Below are positions 1-61,861 of a stretch of DNA of 64,000 nt, in pieces. The notes under the pieces are model-generated. The model did no database searches. It saw only the letters and a program-made list of their open reading frames with translations, and was not told the origin of the DNA. Numbering within the stretch: the first letter of the stretch is position 1; every line of letters starts with the position of its first letter. A program made the position numbers and the translations under genes. Origin of the DNA: a virus (Duplodnaviria; Heunggongvirae; Uroviricota; Caudoviricetes); IMG/VR virus record IMGVR_UViG_2645727901_000008; one strand, written 5' to 3'.

Positions 1-600
1 CTCGATGACACCAGCAAAGTCACCTGATACAAAGGAAGTGTTTTTGAGTACGTCATCAGCCAAAAATGCCTTCATCTCTGCATGTGGGAAGTAGGGCGCT
101 TTGTATTTGCCATACCCCACGTTGAACTCGCCATTTTGGTTGTACCGCGTTACGCCATTAAAACAGTGACGATTAAGGTACAAAAATGCGGCAGCATGAT
201 GTAGTTGGTCATACTTTCCTCTGTTAAATGCCTCACGCACTTCGAGGTAAGCGTCAGCGTTGTTGTAATTTTTGAAAAAACTATATGACAGCGTGACGAG
301 CGAATGTCCTTCTCGCTGCAATGTCTGATAGAAGTTAATCAGGTCACCGTTAATATCATTAAGCAGGTTGTGGCGAAATCCTGCATTCGTAAATACGGAA
401 CCGCCACCAACGAATGGTTCTATTAACCGCTTACCGTGTGGTAGATGCTCAAGCACTGTAGGCAATTCTGAGAATTTACCACCTACCCATTTGAATATCG
501 GACGCTCATATTCATCCGGAGTCCGAATGGTGCGCATATAGCTAATTTCAGCCATCGTATCCTGTTTTTCTATGGCTATGCTTGCTATAGATTTACTCAT
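1..600 (-). CDS. Dam-like DNA N6-adenine methyltransferase, 3' end truncated by window edge
   Basis: Minus-strand ORF from ATG at 600 runs off the window start; translation carries FKWVGGK (AdoMet motif I) and LYLNRHCFNG typical of Dam-family enzymes; start overlaps upstream stop by 8 nt. Confidence 0.7.
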   Translation of the reverse strand, partial: MSKSIASIAIEKQDTMAEISYMRTIRTPDEYERPIFKWVGGKFSELPTVLEHLPHGKRLIEPFVGGGSVFTNAGFRHNLLNDINGDLINFYQTLQREGHSLVTLSYSFFKNYNNADAYLEVREAFNRGKYDQLHHAAAFLYLNRHCFNGVTRYNQNGEFNVGYGKYKAPYFPHAEMKAFLADDVLKNTSFVSGDFAGVIE

Positions 601-1273
601 AGAGCACCCCCTTATTCGCTTCGAAAACTGCCTTTGCGAATCCATGTGGAGTAGCACTTCGAAAATTAGCCCTGTCAGGCCCTGGTGGCGCGGCATGGAT
701 TCTGTTATCTGGCTTGCCTAATGATTCGTCCATTAGGGCATCAGGCATGACAAAGCCCTGGCCGCTCCAGAGGCATGTTTTTTTTGTGTAGTTATCTTCC
801 TGACAATATGCAGTGAAGAAGTAAGGGTGAAAGATGTGATCTGGCTTACGCCAGAATGTCGATATTTTGCTGACCGGATTTTCAATCATGTACGGACAAC
901 CGATCATCTTTGCAATGTCATAACACTGCCAGACAACCTGCATTGCTTTGAACTGGAAAACCGGATCTTTATTAGCCTTGTCCGAAAACCAGCGCGCGCC
1001 GGAAACAGCCAGGTCAGTACACGGTGGGAACCCGGCCAGAAACACGATGCGCTGCAAATTCTTACGGAGAAAAGCGTATACTTCATCGCTATCGATGATC
1101 GCACTAATACGCGTCAGAACGGCACCTGATTGCATCCGCTCGTCACTGGTCGATAAGTGCTGTGGATCGACGATAGCGGCATCGACACCGTATTCCAGCC
1201 AGGGGGCAACCATTGCCCCCGTAAAATCACAAAGACTCACAACAAGCTGTCGGTTATTATCGTTCTGCTTCAC
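593..1273 (-). CDS. C5-cytosine methyltransferase-like protein (compact); start uncertain, GTG at 1273 with GGAGG upstream preferred
   Basis: Motif IV-like GFPPC and motif VI-like ENP in translation; motif I degenerate; translationally coupled to the downstream Dam-like ORF. Confidence 0.45.
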
Positions 1274-2162
1274 CGCCAATGGCCTCCACCAGCGCGTTAA
1301 ACAGTGCAGATAATTCGCCCGTAAAGAGCACGAAATCAGCATCAAATCGTTGTGCTACATCCTCCCGGTCGATATCGTCGTTCTGGTCATAGAGATCATC
1401 ACAGAATGTCAGGGCTTTGATACTCATATCATCGTTGACTCTGAACGACGCACGGTCCATCCAGTTAATTGCAACGGTCGTAGCTACTTTCCCCGCCTCA
1501 ATGTGAGACATAATCTCGTCGGACTGTAGATCAACTTTGTTGCAGCGAACGGCACCACCATTATCGAGCAGACCCTTTAATGTGGCGTCTTCACCTGCTG
1601 TAAATCCGGCAGGGAAGCCGCTTTTAAACCACTCGGTCATTGTAATTTCCAGCGGTTCGCGTGGTGTGAATGGAATGACAGGCAGGCTGCCGAGCGACTT
1701 TCGCAATAAAGCCAGCTGGTCCTCTGCCTTTTTGGCGCTGCTTGCCTCAACGAATACCAGATGGTTGCTGCGGTCGATCAGGATTTTGGCGAGTGATTTT
1801 CTCGTGAACGCGCGAGGCAAAAGTGAATGCAGGACTTCATCTTTAAGACTGTCTCTTTCCGTTTTCTTCAGCTTGCGGGCTTGCTCTTCTTCGAGTTTCA
1901 GGACTTTTTTCTGCAACTCTTCCTTGAGCACCTGCGAGGGGAGAATTTTTTCTTCTCGCTTATGCTGTATTAGCAGAAAACCCTGGTATTCATGGGTGAG
2001 GTTGTCACCAAGAACAGGTGTCCAACCGACTTTAGCTGTGTCCTGAGAACCGCAAGGAGTAAACACGAATTTGCTAAGAGCATCGGATACTTCTGCGGCA
2101 CTCCAGTTAACTTCACGTGAAAGACGATAGATGAAGATGTTTTTGAAAGCGACTGATCTCAT
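1257..2162 (-). CDS. rdgC: Recombination-associated protein RdgC homolog
   Basis: 301 aa; N-terminus ...[13 protein letters not shown]...FTPCGSQD... matches E. coli RdgC as I recall it; length matches. Confidence 0.85.
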
Positions 2163-2168
2163 GTTTCA

Positions 2169-2212
2169 CCAATTGTGTTAGAAAATTCTATTCAATTATC
2201 TAACACAATTGG
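2169..2212. promoter_or_regulatory. Palindromic site CCAATTGTGTTAGA-N16-TCTAACACAATTGG immediately upstream of rdgC start
   Basis: Perfect 14-bp inverted repeat read directly from sequence; core TGTTAGA-N16-TCTAACA recurs elsewhere in the window. Confidence 0.5.
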
Positions 2213-2221
2213 ATGTGTTTT

Positions 2222-2875
2222 CTATCCCTTCTTGAAATCAAAGTTGCTTGCGATGGCCTGGAAGGTGCCTCCAGCCTTGAAATCAATATTTTCGTCGGCT
2301 GTCACAGTAATGTTTTTGCCATTAACGCTGATGTTATCGGCTGATTTGACGTTAACACTCCCTCCCGCATTCACTACTACATCAGCCGGACCAATGATGT
2401 ATATCTGCCCTGATTCATTCATTCCAATCCTTGAGCCTGCTGCCGTATTCGCTATTTCATATCCACCGCCAGCCGTTCGCACTTCGAGCACATTGTTGCG
2501 GTGAATCACGAAATCTTTTGTCGCCGAAAATTGCGGGCGGGGAGGCGCTCCGTCTACTTCTGGTGGCGTCCAGCCGCTACCATTGCCTGACGCCTCCGGC
2601 GCGACGTTTGGTACTCCTCCAGGCGCATCCTGAGCTGCGCCAACTATCATTGGGCGTCTGGTATCAATTCGACCATTAACATCCAGATAAGGAAACTCTA
2701 CCCATACCAGGTCGCCTTTTACTGTAGGTACAAACGCGTTACCTATGGGTAACAGGTATTCTGCCCAGGGTAGATCGTCATCAGGAACGCCATTCCAGTC
2801 TGGTAAAACACGGACCTGAGCACGCATAAGCCCTGCCGGGTGCACAGTTCCAACAATTTGCGCTCTACGCTTCAT
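2222..2875 (-). CDS. Baseplate central spike / gpV-like protein (OB-fold plus beta-helix repeats)
   Basis: 217 aa; C-terminal repetitive VNAGGSVNVKSADNISVNGKNITV pattern typical of phage baseplate spike proteins. Confidence 0.5.
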   Translation of the reverse strand: MKRRAQIVGTVHPAGLMRAQVRVLPDWNGVPDDDLPWAEYLLPIGNAFVPTVKGDLVWVEFPYLDVNGRIDTRRPMIVGAAQDAPGGVPNVAPEASGNGSGWTPPEVDGAPPRPQFSATKDFVIHRNNVLEVRTAGGGYEIANTAAGSRIGMNESGQIYIIGPADVVVNAGGSVNVKSADNISVNGKNITVTADENIDFKAGGTFQAIASNFDFKKG

Positions 2876-3852
2876 TTGTTCGGCACTCCTAATATCATTC
2901 GTGTTGTGTAGCCTACGCGGTCTTCAAAGTGCGCAACATTTTTTACTATCAGCTTGCGGGGCATTGATTCATCAATGCGGTTTTCCTGGTCATAGCGGTA
3001 TACGATAATCTCTATTACCATTCCCGGTTTTATATCCGGATTGCCTGCGACTTCTATATCCATTTTGGGGACGAGAGACAGCTGCATATTGCGAAGAGTT
3101 TCCATATCAGAATCGGATATATAACGCACTGGGAGTGAGCTATCGCCATATTCGACGTAGCCATCGGTCATGGAATACCCAACAAAACGATATTGATTCT
3201 TTGCTGTTGTCGCATGTTCCTGTTGGAGTAGGCGCATTTTGGACAAAGTGTATTCTGCTTTAGGGTTATTCCCCTCGTAGGTAAATGATGGCGTTTGCTT
3301 CATCAGATCAGCCAGGGTGTAAAAGTTAAATTCCCCACGGCATACCCAACATAATGCACCTTTGTCTCGCGCTATCTGCGAGAGCATTTTTGACGGTTTG
3401 TCACCGGCATTCAGATGATATGTAACTGCGCGTTTTAGCACGCTGCTGGTAATTTTAAGCTTGCCGGAATATGCCTTGAATATAGCGTCTGGTGTTTTGT
3501 TGGTATGTAAATTTGTGCGCGGGGAGGGGATCTTAAACCTGCGCACGTCTTCACTGACAGCAATAACGGTAACAACATCACCAGCCAGCATTGCAGACGT
3601 AACAAAGAAGTCTGTTTTAAAAGTGCCTGCATTACCGTTTGGATCGCCCATTTCAGCCACCAGCGATGCACCGTATTTGGCTTTCCAGTCATCAATTACG
3701 GTGCCGGTAGCGTCATGAATTTCCAGTTTTAGCAAAGGGGCTTTGAGGCTGGTTTTTTCTACATATACTGCGGTAAAAATCCAGTCTCGTGGCACTTTGT
3801 TATCGTTAATGAGCACTGACTGTAGAAAATATTGTTGTAACTCCTGGGCCAC
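2872..3852 (-). CDS. Hypothetical phage protein (326 aa), possibly structural
   Basis: Long ORF tightly packed with neighbours on the same strand; no motif recognised. Confidence 0.45.
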   Translation of the reverse strand: MAQELQQYFLQSVLINDNKVPRDWIFTAVYVEKTSLKAPLLKLEIHDATGTVIDDWKAKYGASLVAEMGDPNGNAGTFKTDFFVTSAMLAGDVVTVIAVSEDVRRFKIPSPRTNLHTNKTPDAIFKAYSGKLKITSSVLKRAVTYHLNAGDKPSKMLSQIARDKGALCWVCRGEFNFYTLADLMKQTPSFTYEGNNPKAEYTLSKMRLLQQEHATTAKNQYRFVGYSMTDGYVEYGDSSLPVRYISDSDMETLRNMQLSLVPKMDIEVAGNPDIKPGMVIEIIVYRYDQENRIDESMPRKLIVKNVAHFEDRVGYTTRMILGVPNK

Positions 3853-12637: not shown

Positions 12638-12942
12638 TAAATGTACTCTAATACATTCCGGGCCATTACGGGTTCTAACATATCTTCGCTAGTTACTTTG
12701 GTTAGCACCTGGGCGAGCGCCTTAGTGTGGCGTATCTCTACCGCGAGCGAGATGGACTCTCTGTGAGAAGGAATCTGTAATTGATCACCTTTATCTACAC
12801 TTAAGTTTGAGGCTTCTCTGATCACCTCATAAACCCGTAACTTTAACTGCTGTGACACTTCTTGTTGAGATGCTATAAGCTGAAGTACAGTCTTGATCAA
12901 CTTCAAAGAATCAGAAGCTTGCTGAGGAACCGCATAGAGCAT
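12637..12942 (-). CDS. Small helical protein (101 aa), first gene of the three-gene cassette
   Basis: ATG at 12942 with GGAGGGG RBS; coupled to the next gene. Confidence 0.5.
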   Translation of the reverse strand: MLYAVPQQASDSLKLIKTVLQLIASQQEVSQQLKLRVYEVIREASNLSVDKGDQLQIPSHRESISLAVEIRHTKALAQVLTKVTSEDMLEPVMARNVLEYI

Positions 12943-13077
12943 AACCCCTCCTTTCCCTTATCTATAACCGCTTTCTTTTTTCTGTGTATGTTAAAAGTAG
13001 AAGCGGTTTTTACCTTTTGTAATATATATAGTGTCTAAAACTAACTTTGGCACTATATATGGCATGATATCTATGTT

Positions 13078-13123
13078 TTAAAGACACAAAAGCTCTGTTA
13101 AAACAGAGCTTTTGTGTCTTTAA
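13078..13123. repeat. Perfect 17-bp-stem palindrome AAGACACAAAAGCTCTG-TTAAAA-CAGAGCTTTTGTGTCTT upstream of the three-gene cassette
   Basis: Read directly from sequence; no flanking U-tract on either strand. Confidence 0.6.
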
Positions 13124-13267
13124 CTTGATCATTTTCTCGCTGAAGTGTATGTCAGGCTTAGCTCATAATCAAGTTGCTTCCAAGCTAAAAATGAGCTAGC
13201 TCCCTGAAACACTAAGAGCGGGGTGTTTCATTTATTAGCGTTGGGCCTGACGGTGTGTAGGTGAATT

Positions 13268-16194: not shown

Positions 16195-16224
16195 TGTTAG
16201 ATATTCAAAATTGATTTTCTAACA
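16195..16224. promoter_or_regulatory. Palindromic site TGTTAGA-N16-TCTAACA in the divergent region upstream of ref
   Basis: Read from sequence; about 50 bp upstream of the ref ATG. Confidence 0.5.
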
Positions 16225-19505: not shown

Positions 19506-19530
19506 TCAAATCATTTACGCACTCAAAATG

Positions 19531-19560
19531 CGTTAGAACATTGATTTTAGTTTTCTAACA
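19531..19560. promoter_or_regulatory. Palindromic site CGTTAGA-N16-TCTAACA followed by TATTAT, upstream of the 19603 gene
   Basis: Read from sequence. Confidence 0.5.
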
Positions 19561-19602
19561 TATTATTTTACCACTCGGAACAAAACAGAGTCGGTATGCA
19601 TT

Positions 19603-34478: not shown

Positions 34479-35842
34479 TAATCATCCTCCGGCGGTTCTA
34501 TCGCGATATCATCATCTCCGGCGTCATACCCTGCATCAGATACATCATAATCACCGTAAATTTCAGCCGTTGCCGAAGGGTCAATATCCAGCTCTTCGTC
34601 GTTGGCCTCGAATTCTCCAGCTTTACGCTCGCCATTGCGGTCGTAATCTCCGCACCCCAATTCTTCAACAATGGTTGCCACATCCGCCCGGCGCTCTGCC
34701 AGCCATTGCGGATGGTTAGCCTGAAGCGTTGCAAACTCCCTTGCCTCTTTGTCCAGCTGTTCATCATCAACATCATTGACGTCAGAAACAGGTGGTTCGA
34801 GAAGAGTGATAGCTTTCGCCGCGCGCGCCGCGAGGATAGCCGGGACGCTGACCCCCTGGCGCTCGATGTATTCAGCAACACCGATATCATCCAGTTCCTC
34901 GCGCTCACGCATACGTATAGCGGCGGCGATAACTCTGGCTGCGCGTGCGTCAGCGCCAATGCGATATTCAATCTCTTTGCCACGCTGTTCGGCCTGTAGG
35001 CGTGCTAATTCGAGTTTTTCTCTGGCCTCAGCCTCTTTGAATGCTTGCTGGCGAGCGCTCTGACGAAGCTTTTCATCCCCCTGTCGCAGCTTTTGTTCGG
35101 ACTGATATATAGCTGCCAACCTACTGATAAAATCATTCATGTAGTAGGCCGCGTCACTGATTAGACCGAGAAGACGCTGCCCAGGGTGCATTCCTTCTGG
35201 CTCTTTATCGCCCAAGGCGTCTATTTCCGCCTGTAGGCGTTCGGCCTCCTGATCAACAATGCTTTGATACTGAAGTGCGCGCTCTTGCGCCATTTGAATT
35301 GCTAACCGCAGGTGTTCTTCTGCGCCGTTCTTCATCATATCGCGAGCCACATTCGTAGTGGGCAATGTGGCACGCTGCACAGCACCGTCAGGGATCATTG
35401 CAGAAGATCCCTCAATTTTTGGGGCGCTTTTATCTTCTTCGGGGATCATTTTCGCCATTTTTTCGCGCAATGATCTCCTGACAGATTCTTTTATCTCATT
35501 GTTATTATTTGCATTATTTTCATGATCCGAAGTTTTCTTTCTCGGCATACTTCGGAAAGAACCTGCGCCCTGCGAATTGTCAATTTCTGTAAATTTTGTT
35601 TTTTCTGCACCCTCTTCCAGCTTTTTTGTTGCTCTTCCCGCCCGTTTTTTTTCAGGTGATTTGGTGCTTTTTTTTGTTGTCTTTACCTGCGACCGCACCT
35701 CATTTTTTTTCATATTGAGATGCTTTCTGGCTGTATTGAAGCTAAGGCCATGCTCCTCACAGTATTCCTTTACAGTGATCCCTTTTTCTTCACGCAACGC
35801 TATAAAGCGGGCGCGGTGCTCCTCCCAATTAACCAGACTCAT
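34478..35842 (-). CDS. pacA: Terminase small subunit (PacA-like)
   Basis: 454 aa basic and coiled-coil-rich protein in the lpa-pacA-pacB order of P1; internal GATC cluster. Confidence 0.7.
   Translation of the reverse strand: MSLVNWEEHRARFIALREEKGITVKEYCEEHGLSFNTARKHLNMKKNEVRSQVKTTKKSTKSPEKKRAGRATKKLEEGAEKTKFTEIDNSQGAGSFRSMPRKKTSDHENNANNNNEIKESVRRSLREKMAKMIPEEDKSAPKIEGSSAMIPDGAVQRATLPTTNVARDMMKNGAEEHLRLAIQMAQERALQYQSIVDQEAERLQAEIDALGDKEPEGMHPGQRLLGLISDAAYYMNDFISRLAAIYQSEQKLRQGDEKLRQSARQQAFKEAEAREKLELARLQAEQRGKEIEYRIGADARAARVIAAAIRMREREELDDIGVAEYIERQGVSVPAILAARAAKAITLLEPPVSDVNDVDDEQLDKEAREFATLQANHPQWLAERRADVATIVEELGCGDYDRNGERKAGEFEANDEELDIDPSATAEIYGDYDVSDAGYDAGDDDIAIEPPEDD
35393..35527. other. 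Candidate pac site: five GATC elements (mostly TGATCC/TGATCT) within about 135 bp inside pacA
   Basis: GATC at 35393, 35406, 35444, 35472 and 35524 read from sequence; P1 pac is a cluster of TGATC(A/G) hexamers inside pacA. Confidence 0.35.
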
Positions 35843-59936: not shown

Positions 59937-61861
59937 TAAGCACCTCCCTGCTGAATTTCAGCCAGAATGTTGATCAGGTAGTCAACTGCTGCACCCACAG
60001 TGGCTTCGTTCTCGTCGTATCGACCTGCACTGATTAGAGCATTTGCTGCTTCCTGTACATGATCAAGTTCAGTACTGATGACCGTCAGATCGCGGGGTGT
60101 AAACTGCTCCGGAACGGATTTCAGGTACTCCAGCGCTTTATCTGCCTCCTGATCAGCTTCACTTGCTGATTCACCAGCTTCTTCTGGCTCCGGCTCCTGT
60201 TCTGTTGCTGGTTGTGGTTGTGATTCCGGATCAACCACATGCTCTGTTTTTACTTCGATTGAATGATTTTGAAGGGCGTTATACACGTCCATAATGAAAA
60301 GGTTCTCCCCATCACCAAGTGGATACGCCACGTTTGGAAACGCTTTGCGGAAAAGAATTTTCACTTGCGCCTTGAATGTTTTCAGGTCACTGCCAAACAG
60401 GTCTACATAGCCATCAATATGTTTCGACATGCTGGACACAACCAATTGGCCTGCAAAATCTTTCAGCTCATCTTCATCAGGAAGATAGAGCAACTCGTAC
60501 TGGCTGACTTCTTCATCTGTCAGTTTACGGTCATACGTAATGATACCGTGACGAGCATATTCGTAATACTGATCAGCCTGGTCAGGACGATCAATCACGG
60601 CTTTATTTCCATCCGGCACAGCACCAACACCAGCCGGGCGAGATTGAAGTGCATAGTGGTATTTACCTACATCCTGGCTCTCTTGTTGTGATACTGGGTT
60701 CGTCTCGGGGTCTGTCTGTGGTGGTTCGGAGTCTTCCTGCTGGCCTGGTAACACATCAACTTTATATTTATCTGCGTTATGCTCTCGGTAGGCTTTAAGT
60801 AATTTGGTTGCAGCATCTGCCAAACTGCCTCCTTTGACAGCACTGGCATCAATACTGAATTTACCTTCAGGTGCTACTATCGTAACGAAATTGTCACTGC
60901 CGGACGTGACATAATTAACTTCAGCGCCATTATCCAGCACTGTTTTTCCGTCAATGGCAAGATTATGTTTTACATGTCGCAGCTGGTCACTAAACGCTCG
61001 CTCTTTCGTTTTTTCACCTTTAGCAGACAACAATTTATCGCGTTTTGCTTGTAATTCCTCGTTGATGGCTTTCTGGGCATCAAGTTTTTTTTGCATCTCC
61101 GTAAGAGCAGCACGCTTTTCAGTCAGCCCACGTTGCGCAACTTCCACCTGATCAATCATTATTGACCGTTCTTCTGCCAGTTTATCTGCTTCATTGAGAT
61201 AACTCTCAATATCTGCCTTCATTTTGTCCTGGCGCTCTTTTGCTTTCTTAAATTTTTCGCTGTTACGCTCAATCAAATTAGATAGCGCCTGGCATACCTG
61301 GCTTAAAGAAACATCTCTCCCACCAATCGGGGCGACAACGTGAGTTACGTTACGTTTATTAAGTAAAAACTGAAATGCAACAAGCTCGTCGTTACTCTTT
61401 ATTTTTGCCCCGTCAGATGTTGGAGAGTGGAAAATTATGCTTGTACTCTGCCCGTCAGTAAGCGGTATCTGCGCGGTCAAAACAGGGATATTAGCTACCC
61501 GACGTACACGACCGATAATCGCACCACCAATACAATTACGTCCATTTTCATCGGCCCCGGCTTCATCAGTCCCTGCCATAATATTCGTACCATTCAGGCC
61601 ACGATTCAGCGCACGGACGAAAGCTCGCATTGTTTGAGCTAACCGAATTCTGGTTGTAGTTATGGACTCAAACATAGCTTCGTCAGACACAACCAGAATT
61701 TCATTGCCCATATAGGCAAGCTCAATATCTTCTAAGGTCGCCGCCTCAAAAATCAGGTCATCTTCGCTTAATTCTTCTGAAGACCAGCGACTTGGCATAT
61801 AGCCGGGGATCGTATCAGCAAAAGTAGACTGAATATTAATTCGTAAAGGATTGTTAATCAT
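59936..61861 (-). CDS. darA: DarA-like internal head / antirestriction protein (start at internal ATG 61861)
   Basis: About 641 aa from the internal start, matching P1 DarA size; follows the lydA-lydB-like pair; assignment partly positional. Confidence 0.5.
   Translation of the reverse strand: MINNPLRINIQSTFADTIPGYMPSRWSSEELSEDDLIFEAATLEDIELAYMGNEILVVSDEAMFESITTTRIRLAQTMRAFVRALNRGLNGTNIMAGTDEAGADENGRNCIGGAIIGRVRRVANIPVLTAQIPLTDGQSTSIIFHSPTSDGAKIKSNDELVAFQFLLNKRNVTHVVAPIGGRDVSLSQVCQALSNLIERNSEKFKKAKERQDKMKADIESYLNEADKLAEERSIMIDQVEVAQRGLTEKRAALTEMQKKLDAQKAINEELQAKRDKLLSAKGEKTKERAFSDQLRHVKHNLAIDGKTVLDNGAEVNYVTSGSDNFVTIVAPEGKFSIDASAVKGGSLADAATKLLKAYREHNADKYKVDVLPGQQEDSEPPQTDPETNPVSQQESQDVGKYHYALQSRPAGVGAVPDGNKAVIDRPDQADQYYEYARHGIITYDRKLTDEEVSQYELLYLPDEDELKDFAGQLVVSSMSKHIDGYVDLFGSDLKTFKAQVKILFRKAFPNVAYPLGDGENLFIMDVYNALQNHSIEVKTEHVVDPESQPQPATEQEPEPEEAGESASEADQEADKALEYLKSVPEQFTPRDLTVISTELDHVQEAANALISAGRYDENEATVGAAVDYLINILAEIQQGGA

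Follow-up and report, generated by a model that had tools for sequence, protein, structure and literature searches.

One of the nearest described counterparts of the locus analysed here is the dmt gene of phage P1, whose 754-amino-acid (aa) product Dmt consists of a canonical PF00145 cytosine methylase domain followed by a PF02086 Dam domain; the P1 GenBank record assigns GATC methylation to the Dam part, and the operon is controlled by the C1 operator Odmt. In Escherichia phage D6 (GenBank MF356679) two separate genes are annotated, D6_64 as a "putative DNA-cytosine methylase" and D6_63 as a "site-specific DNA-adenine methylase", next to D6_65, an RdgC-family gene described as similar to P1 hrdC. 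A third point of reference is the 236-aa protein "Dcm" of phage K42, which triggers retron Ec86 (Eco1) and raises 5-methylcytosine (5mC) on multicopy single-stranded DNA (msDNA), as measured by LC-MS, mass spectrometry coupled to liquid chromatography (bioRxiv 10.1101/2023.08.16.553469; this preprint on the K42 or KarlJaspers-type Dcm has since appeared in a journal, Wang et al., Cell Rep 2024, 43:114857). Here we analyse a 64,000-nucleotide (nt) stretch of tailed-phage DNA (IMG/VR record IMGVR_UViG_2645727901_000008; hereafter the window), at whose left end rdgC, a gene for a compact C5-cytosine-methylase-like protein of 226 aa and dam follow one another on the minus strand. We consider it very likely that this is the tail of an rdgC, compact C5 methylase and dam operon of a D6-like E. 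coli plasmid prophage, and that its last two genes encode two independent, active orphan DNA methylases. Both methylase genes are already known through their annotation in phage D6, and the finding is to that extent an ordinary one.

Gene order and coupling in a D6-like plasmid prophage

Positions 1-2200 of the window are 100% identical to E. coli plasmid NZ_AP027678.1 and share 96.5% nucleotide identity with phage D6. The same stretch is matched by 119 plasmid records, and for 96 of these the match extends over 80% of its length or more; these non-conjugative plasmids come from E. coli, Salmonella and Shigella. Judged by these matches the window is a D6-like plasmid prophage (phage-plasmid) of E. 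coli. In D6 the two genes likewise follow rdgC (D6_65) and the baseplate genes in this order. Its pair, with a C5-like protein 99% identical to ours, shows no difference of substance apart from a glutaminyl-tRNA synthetase gene (glnS) that lies between dam and the par/stb genes in D6 (locus L001, 1985-3646) and is missing from that place in NZ_AP027678.1 (locus L036, 2264-3600).

Read along the minus strand, the order is rdgC (1257..2162), the compact C5-like gene (593..1273) and dam (1..600), with overlaps of 17 nt and then 8 nt. The first gene of this three-gene unit, rdgC, is the homologue of P1 hrdC (PF04381 RdgC, 5.1e-103; product 51% identical to P1 HrdC), and the GTG start of the C5-like gene lies within its last 17 nt. 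The latter is the counterpart of D6_64 and ends in a TAA stop at 595-593, while dam opens with ATG 600 and runs past the window edge, leaving the first 200 of its 301 codons in view. The 8-nt overlap ATGAGTAA (593..600, minus strand), which can be read directly from the sequence, is used in different frames by the two genes and sets the dam start within the final codons and stop of the C5-like gene; a Shine-Dalgarno-like run, AAGGGGG, lies 6 nt upstream of the dam ATG. Two coupled minus-strand open reading frames (ORFs) had been proposed for this place in the initial annotation of the window, and the arrangement bears this out: to judge from the overlap, the C5-like gene and dam are translationally coupled.

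The start of the C5-like gene is likely to be GTG 1273. Called mechanically, the ORF is 250 aa long from TTG 1345, with its first 72 nt inside rdgC. GTG 1273, which yields the 226-aa product, is preceded at 9 nt by GGAGG (1287-1283), is the start annotated for D6_64 as well, and agrees with the close homologues, likewise called at 226 aa. In NZ_AP027678.1 (L036, 3593-4213) RefSeq/PGAP lists the gene as a 206-aa "hypothetical protein" from ATG 1213, a label that arises because the compact family is without a Pfam or NCBIfam model. Starting at ATG 1213 deprives the protein of its conserved first strand along with the DxTG cofactor loop, and GTG 1273 suits the family alignment.

The existence of proteins in which a compact C5 domain is fused to Dam (P0121, 563 aa, and P0391, 566 aa), together with the fused state of P1 Dmt, could suggest that a frameshift, through a sequencing error or recent conversion to a pseudogene, has split one Dmt-like fusion gene into the two ORFs. 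However, there is no single continuous reading frame here, and the order of rdgC, compact C5 gene and dam, including the frame offset, is identical in all 22 D6-like viral contigs retrieved, which excludes a sequencing frameshift. D6 and the identical plasmid share this layout and offset, and protein identity over the whole set spans 82-99%. Each ORF is served by a separate start codon and Shine-Dalgarno-like run, both genes are under purifying selection, and the linker of about 50 residues found in the fused P0121 and P0391 is missing from the window pair. With layout and offset conserved in all D6-like relatives examined, we rejected the broken-fusion explanation, to which we assign next to no probability.

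Motifs and conservation of the compact protein

The compact protein carries motif I as LCDFTGAM (1234-1211), motif IV as FPPC (residues 82-85; 1030-1019), in which the predicted catalytic Cys85 is encoded at 1021-1019, and motif VI as ENP (residues 131-133; 883-875), in which Glu131 is encoded at 883-881, all on the minus strand. Further on, Lys164 and Lys165 stand directly before the strand TCLWSG, at the place where M.HhaI presumably has its motif VIII arginines, and a C-terminal helix closes the protein. Motifs IV and VI are as clear as the initial annotation held, and its description of motif I as degenerate is right in so far as the loop is of DxTG rather than FxGxG type. The same non-canonical loop, which resembles the generic class I DxGxG loop, is kept across the family, and the departure reads as family-wide conservation and not as decay. 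The spacing of the DxTG loop, Asp36, Asp61 and Cys85 parallels that of Phe25, Glu47, Asp69 and Cys98 in the phage carboxymethyltransferase CmoX, and the spacing of the putative cofactor-binding acidic residues likewise fits the canonical C5 methylases.

Profile searches placed the protein in phrog_757 ("DNA methyltransferase"; 3.9e-78, residues 2-224 covered). This compact family is large, with more than 7,900 homologues in a collection clustered at 90%, 1,608 clusters at 50% identity, mostly of 200-280 aa, and relatives in about 1,580 phage records, chiefly from Escherichia, Klebsiella and Salmonella phages. Conservation was counted over 81 diverse members that are 34-49% identical to the 226-aa protein. 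Cys85, Glu131, Pro133, Pro150, Lys164, Thr166, Trp169 and Gly211 are invariant in all 81, at least 90% conservation is seen for Asp16, Pro24, Trp25, Asp36, Phe82, Pro83, Asn132, Arg205, Ser206 and Thr208, and Gly19 and Asp61 are invariant among the closer relatives.

Compared with D6-like relatives, the ratio of nonsynonymous to synonymous substitution rates (dN/dS) is 0.07-0.12 for the compact gene and 0.07-0.16 for dam. In one of these relatives (L012) the synonymous rate dS, taken against positions 1-2162 of the window, differs among adjacent genes, falling from 1.54 in rdgC through 0.34 in the C5 gene to 0.05 in dam; sharp differences of this kind between neighbouring operon genes also occur in L014 and L019, and this unevenness therefore points to recombination breakpoints within the operon.

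The protein itself had no Pfam match at E values up to 1, staying below all Pfam thresholds, and no NCBIfam match. No C5 methylase came up in Pfam, NCBIfam or PDB sequence searches, whether these were run with the single sequence or with profiles built from 43 and from 81 sequences. Among Pfam families PF00145 drew hits from the largest number of relatives, faint ones in 5 of the 81 members, at a best E value of 0.0039.

Predicted fold and chemistry

An AlphaFold model of the 226-aa protein, built from 66 sequences, reached a predicted local distance difference test score (pLDDT) of 87.7 and a predicted template modelling score (pTM) of 0.87. Its fold matches scored 12.2 for DNMT3B, 11.8 for CmoX (8yf3), 11.6 for the prophage C5 methylase 3g7u and 10.7 for DNMT3A. 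In Foldseek searches with the model DNMT3A and DNMT3B ranked first, as did small phage "DNA-cytosine methylases" in a viral library. The margin is modest, and FtsJ-type RNA methylases also rank near the top of the matches. Fold, motif order, the Pro-Cys nucleophile and the Glu-Asn-x motif are all shared with the canonical C5 methylases (M.HhaI, the catalytic domain of DNMT3A/3B, CmoX), and we predict that the protein represents the C5-methylase fold in minimal form. It is about 100 residues shorter than the smallest classical C5 methylases and has no distinct target-recognition domain between motifs VIII and IX; only some 30 residues (172-204), mostly coil and modelled at a pLDDT of about 70, lie between the strand TCLWSG and the last helix.

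The likeness to CmoX raises the question of whether the compact enzyme, though active, performs something other than plain C5-methylation of DNA, either by transferring a carboxymethyl group from carboxy-S-adenosylmethionine (Cx-SAM) or by acting on RNA or single-stranded DNA. In CmoX an arginine replaces Asn304 of HhaI and binds the carboxyl group, and the conserved Arg205-Ser206 at the start of the last helix may occupy the position of this arginine. E. coli makes Cx-SAM, in the tRNA cmo5U pathway through CmoA. The high rank of FtsJ-type enzymes, and the fact that msDNA is the only substrate shown for a homologue, would also suit this alternative. DNMT3A and DNMT3B, however, have Arg-Ser at the same position and yet use S-adenosylmethionine (SAM), and no cmoA or cmoY homologue was seen beside the gene here or in D6. 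For the RNA methylases the alignment spans no more than about 130 residues, compared with 170-185 for the DNA C5 methylases, and LC-MS on the K42 homologue gave 5mC specifically. An alternative chemistry or substrate is, on balance, quite unlikely.

An active homologue in phage K42

Evidence for activity in the family comes from K42 Dcm, which belongs to the same compact family (phrog_757). Residues 22-257 of gp63 of phage tunus, a close relative of K42, bear exactly the residue positions of K42 Dcm, and this segment is 37% identical to the 226-aa protein over its full length (E 2e-42), such that Cys82, Glu128, Lys175 and Lys176 of K42 Dcm align with Cys85, Glu131, Lys164 and Lys165. The C82A/E128A/K175A/K176A mutant of K42 Dcm is inactive, and the wild-type protein is active alone when expressed from a plasmid (bioRxiv 10.1101/2023.08.16.553469). 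The two proteins differ in that K42 Dcm has a 14-residue insert before motif VIII and a loop between motif VIII and the last helix that is unrelated in sequence to ours. Because these putative recognition loops are unrelated, the target may differ, and we have not transferred CCWGG to the D6-type protein.

The genomic settings differ as well. In tunus there is no dam within 3 kb of the compact gene, whereas the D6-type gene belongs to a temperate phage-plasmid and is coupled to dam. In KarlBarth two other genes separate the compact gene from a Dam-like gene about 850 bp downstream. The family appears to stand by itself, with no Dam next to it, in many lytic phages. The compact gene is not tied to Dam in either of these phages.

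These results bear on the proposal, made in the initial annotation, that the short protein is a degenerate or specialised partner, that is, a catalytically dead remnant or an accessory subunit of the adjacent Dam. Its shortness for a C5 methylase, the missing target-recognition domain, the non-canonical motif I, the lack of a Pfam or NCBIfam match, the coupling to dam and the fusion to Dam in P0121 and P0391 would all be consistent with such a role. Against this stand the invariance of the catalytic Cys and Glu over 81 diverse members, a dN/dS of about 0.1, the spread of the family over about 1,580 phage records, with tunus as one checked example that has no Dam nearby, and the homologue that works on its own from a plasmid. 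Methyltransferase homology is present rather than lost, and in the light of the invariant Cys and Glu, the low dN/dS and the active homologue we rejected the dead-partner explanation as very improbable. Both methylases are intact and under selection, and they are probably active orphan enzymes without a partner nuclease.

The adjacent Dam

The Dam-like assignment of the second ORF is borne out by profile matches. From the 200 residues within the window, Dam scores 8e-37 and 127.8 bits against PF02086 (cut-off 22) and 164.6 bits against TIGR00571 (cut-off 114.85), while against the E. coli Dam equivalog it reaches 161.7 and falls short of the cut-off of 441. The motif KWVGGK (492-475) and the SAM loop EPFVGGGS (420-397), both on the minus strand, fall within the window. 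Leftward extension through NZ_AP027678.1 gave the complete protein of 301 aa (L036, 2695-3600), in which FCDPPYEP occupies residues 209-216, as it does in D6_63; this places the motif 9-16 residues beyond the window edge, with DPPY beginning at residue 11 beyond it. The target of Dam is predicted to be GATC from its family and because it is 69% identical to residues 478-753 of P1 Dmt, the GATC-methylating domain according to the P1 record.

A link between Dam and a GATC-rich candidate pac site had also been suggested, and this was not established. GATC occurs 232 times in the window against 248 expected, and counts of GATC and TGATCR showed no overall enrichment in the window. Small local clusters of TGATCA or GATC are present at 12782-13131, 35390-35530 and 59971-60155. 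None of these clusters fits the seven-hexamer layout of the P1 pac site.

Relation to P1 Dmt and to fused relatives

The pair in the window occupies the same slot after rdgC as Dmt does after hrdC (uhr-hrdC) in P1. The fused, two-domain form of Dmt was given correctly in the initial annotation, and its picture of the P1 domains as separate genes holds for Dam, which is orthologous. It does not hold for the cytosine half, which in P1 is a PF00145 domain (about 480 aa) on the same polypeptide as Dam and here is a separate 226-aa gene product. Against the N-terminal half of P1 Dmt, the best BLASTP E value of the compact protein was 2.9, and hhalign comparisons with this half and with an alignment of 26 P1-type fusions returned probabilities of 0.2 and 0.08; the best hhalign path, non-significant overall, sets FPPC on TPCQ and IENP on WENV. 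We thus rejected orthology of the 226-aa protein with the P1 C5 domain for want of significant sequence similarity. As read from these comparisons, the cytosine-methylase module in the slot after rdgC/hrdC is a non-orthologous replacement, and only Dam is orthologous. A literature search on the D6 methylases and on the cytosine activity of P1 Dmt found nothing specific.

P0121 and P0391, the diverged relatives that join the compact C5 domain to Dam, are 71% identical to each other; on a 69-kb contig P0391 is the second gene downstream of RdgC, with a 199-aa ORF in between. P0408 (492 aa), which has a Dam domain and an N-terminus of unassigned kind, was tested as a further compact-C5 fusion and is not one. 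With the N-terminal half of P1 Dmt as query, the homologues retrieved were close P1-like proteins only, too narrow a set for a broad canonical profile. Among P1-like elements, P0271 (473 aa) is a stand-alone PF00145 cytosine methylase with 123 member sequences and 99% identity to this half, and its occurrence means that split and fused forms coexist in the P1 lineage too. Further module combinations were seen in P0481, P0189 and the BFVD entries A0A6J5NPY6 and A0A6J5SE15; among them are Dam joined to a PAPS-reductase-like domain (PF01507), a compact C5 methylase that shares a polypeptide with an HNH nuclease, and phage proteins of 1,100-1,400 aa that contain compact C5 domains, one of these proteins described with a helicase/UvrB N-terminal domain.

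A putative operator and promoter upstream of rdgC

The P1 operon is governed by Odmt, and the window too has an operator-like sequence in front of its operon, a perfect 14-bp inverted repeat in the stretch between the baseplate gene and rdgC. The extended half-site of this repeat, ATTGTGTTAGAWAATT, is present there in two inverted copies, at 2172-2187 (plus strand) and 2194-2209 (minus strand), which form a candidate bivalent repressor operator. When up to 3 mismatches are allowed, this 16-bp motif has 13 copies in the window, 12 of them intergenic, against 1.33 expected, and none of 100 shuffles reached 13. A second inverted pair with the same spacing is found at 19527-19564, the copies of an inverted pair being 22 bp apart, and single copies lie at 16213, 30475, 31875, 36306, 40684, 42091, 43134, 53041 and 54239. 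In our own comparison ATTGTGTTAGAWAATT matches Odmt at 10 of 17 positions. The set looks like operators of a C1-type repressor of the phage, comparable to the scattered C1 operators of P1.

A consensus scan found a sigma-70-like promoter on the minus strand at 2195..2224 (TAGAAA, 18 nt, GATAAT), a weak match of 9 out of 12 and the sole promoter-like site in positions 1-3000. Its -10 hexamer falls inside the upstream operator copy.

Discussion

We propose that the compact protein and Dam act as two separate modification enzymes. Dam would transfer a methyl group from SAM to N6 of the adenine in GATC, as its family and its identity to P1 Dam suggest. In the compact enzyme, SAM would be bound by the DxTG loop after strand 1 together with Asp36 and Asp61, to go by the motif spacing, and from what is known of C5 methylases Cys85 of FPPC would attack C6 of a flipped-out cytosine while Glu131 of ENP protonates N3, after which the methyl group would be placed on C5. 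Since a loop of about 30 residues stands in place of a recognition domain, the target cannot be copied from host Dcm. Expression would start from a promoter overlapped by the bivalent operator, so that the genes may stay off in the prophage and be turned on early during lytic growth, in the manner of Pdmt/Odmt in P1. The phage may benefit from shielding of its DNA from restriction, in addition to the role of Dam in packaging and replication. Relative to P1, the slot after rdgC/hrdC would have been kept and its cytosine module swapped for a compact one, which here has a gene of its own and in a few relatives is joined to Dam.

Several observations weigh against this proposal. The 5mC evidence comes from the K42 homologue, at 37% identity, and not from the D6-type copies, and the K42 study took CCWGG by analogy with host Dcm, used a dcm+ host and left the sites unmapped (bioRxiv 10.1101/2023.08.16.553469). 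Sequence-profile tests of the 226-aa protein against canonical C5 methylases were not significant, and its motif I is not of the FxGxG type. Pattern statistics are the basis on which operator and promoter are predicted, and no terminator was found between the operon and the upstream baseplate genes, such that late expression by read-through is possible.

The absence of a recognition domain, the translational coupling to Dam and the fusion to Dam in some relatives also led us to consider that the compact enzyme may depend on Dam for its targeting, or else have very relaxed specificity. It might, for example, methylate a cytosine of or next to GATC and so give doubly modified sites, and the pair would then be one bipartite modification device rather than two orphan methylases. 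A related consequence would be the triggering of retron Eco1 by D6-like prophages wherever the host has this retron. We give this version a small chance and favour two independent enzymes.

The practical value of the result lies mainly in annotation, and the locus does not represent a new kind of system. The phrog_757 compact family, although very common in phages, has no Pfam or NCBIfam model. For the phage-plasmids themselves, the comparison shows that P1-like and D6-like elements fill a slot for a cytosine methylase plus Dam with non-homologous modules, either fused or separate. What the minimal enzyme targets, and how it reads DNA without a recognition domain, bear on the prediction of restriction evasion and of retron triggering.

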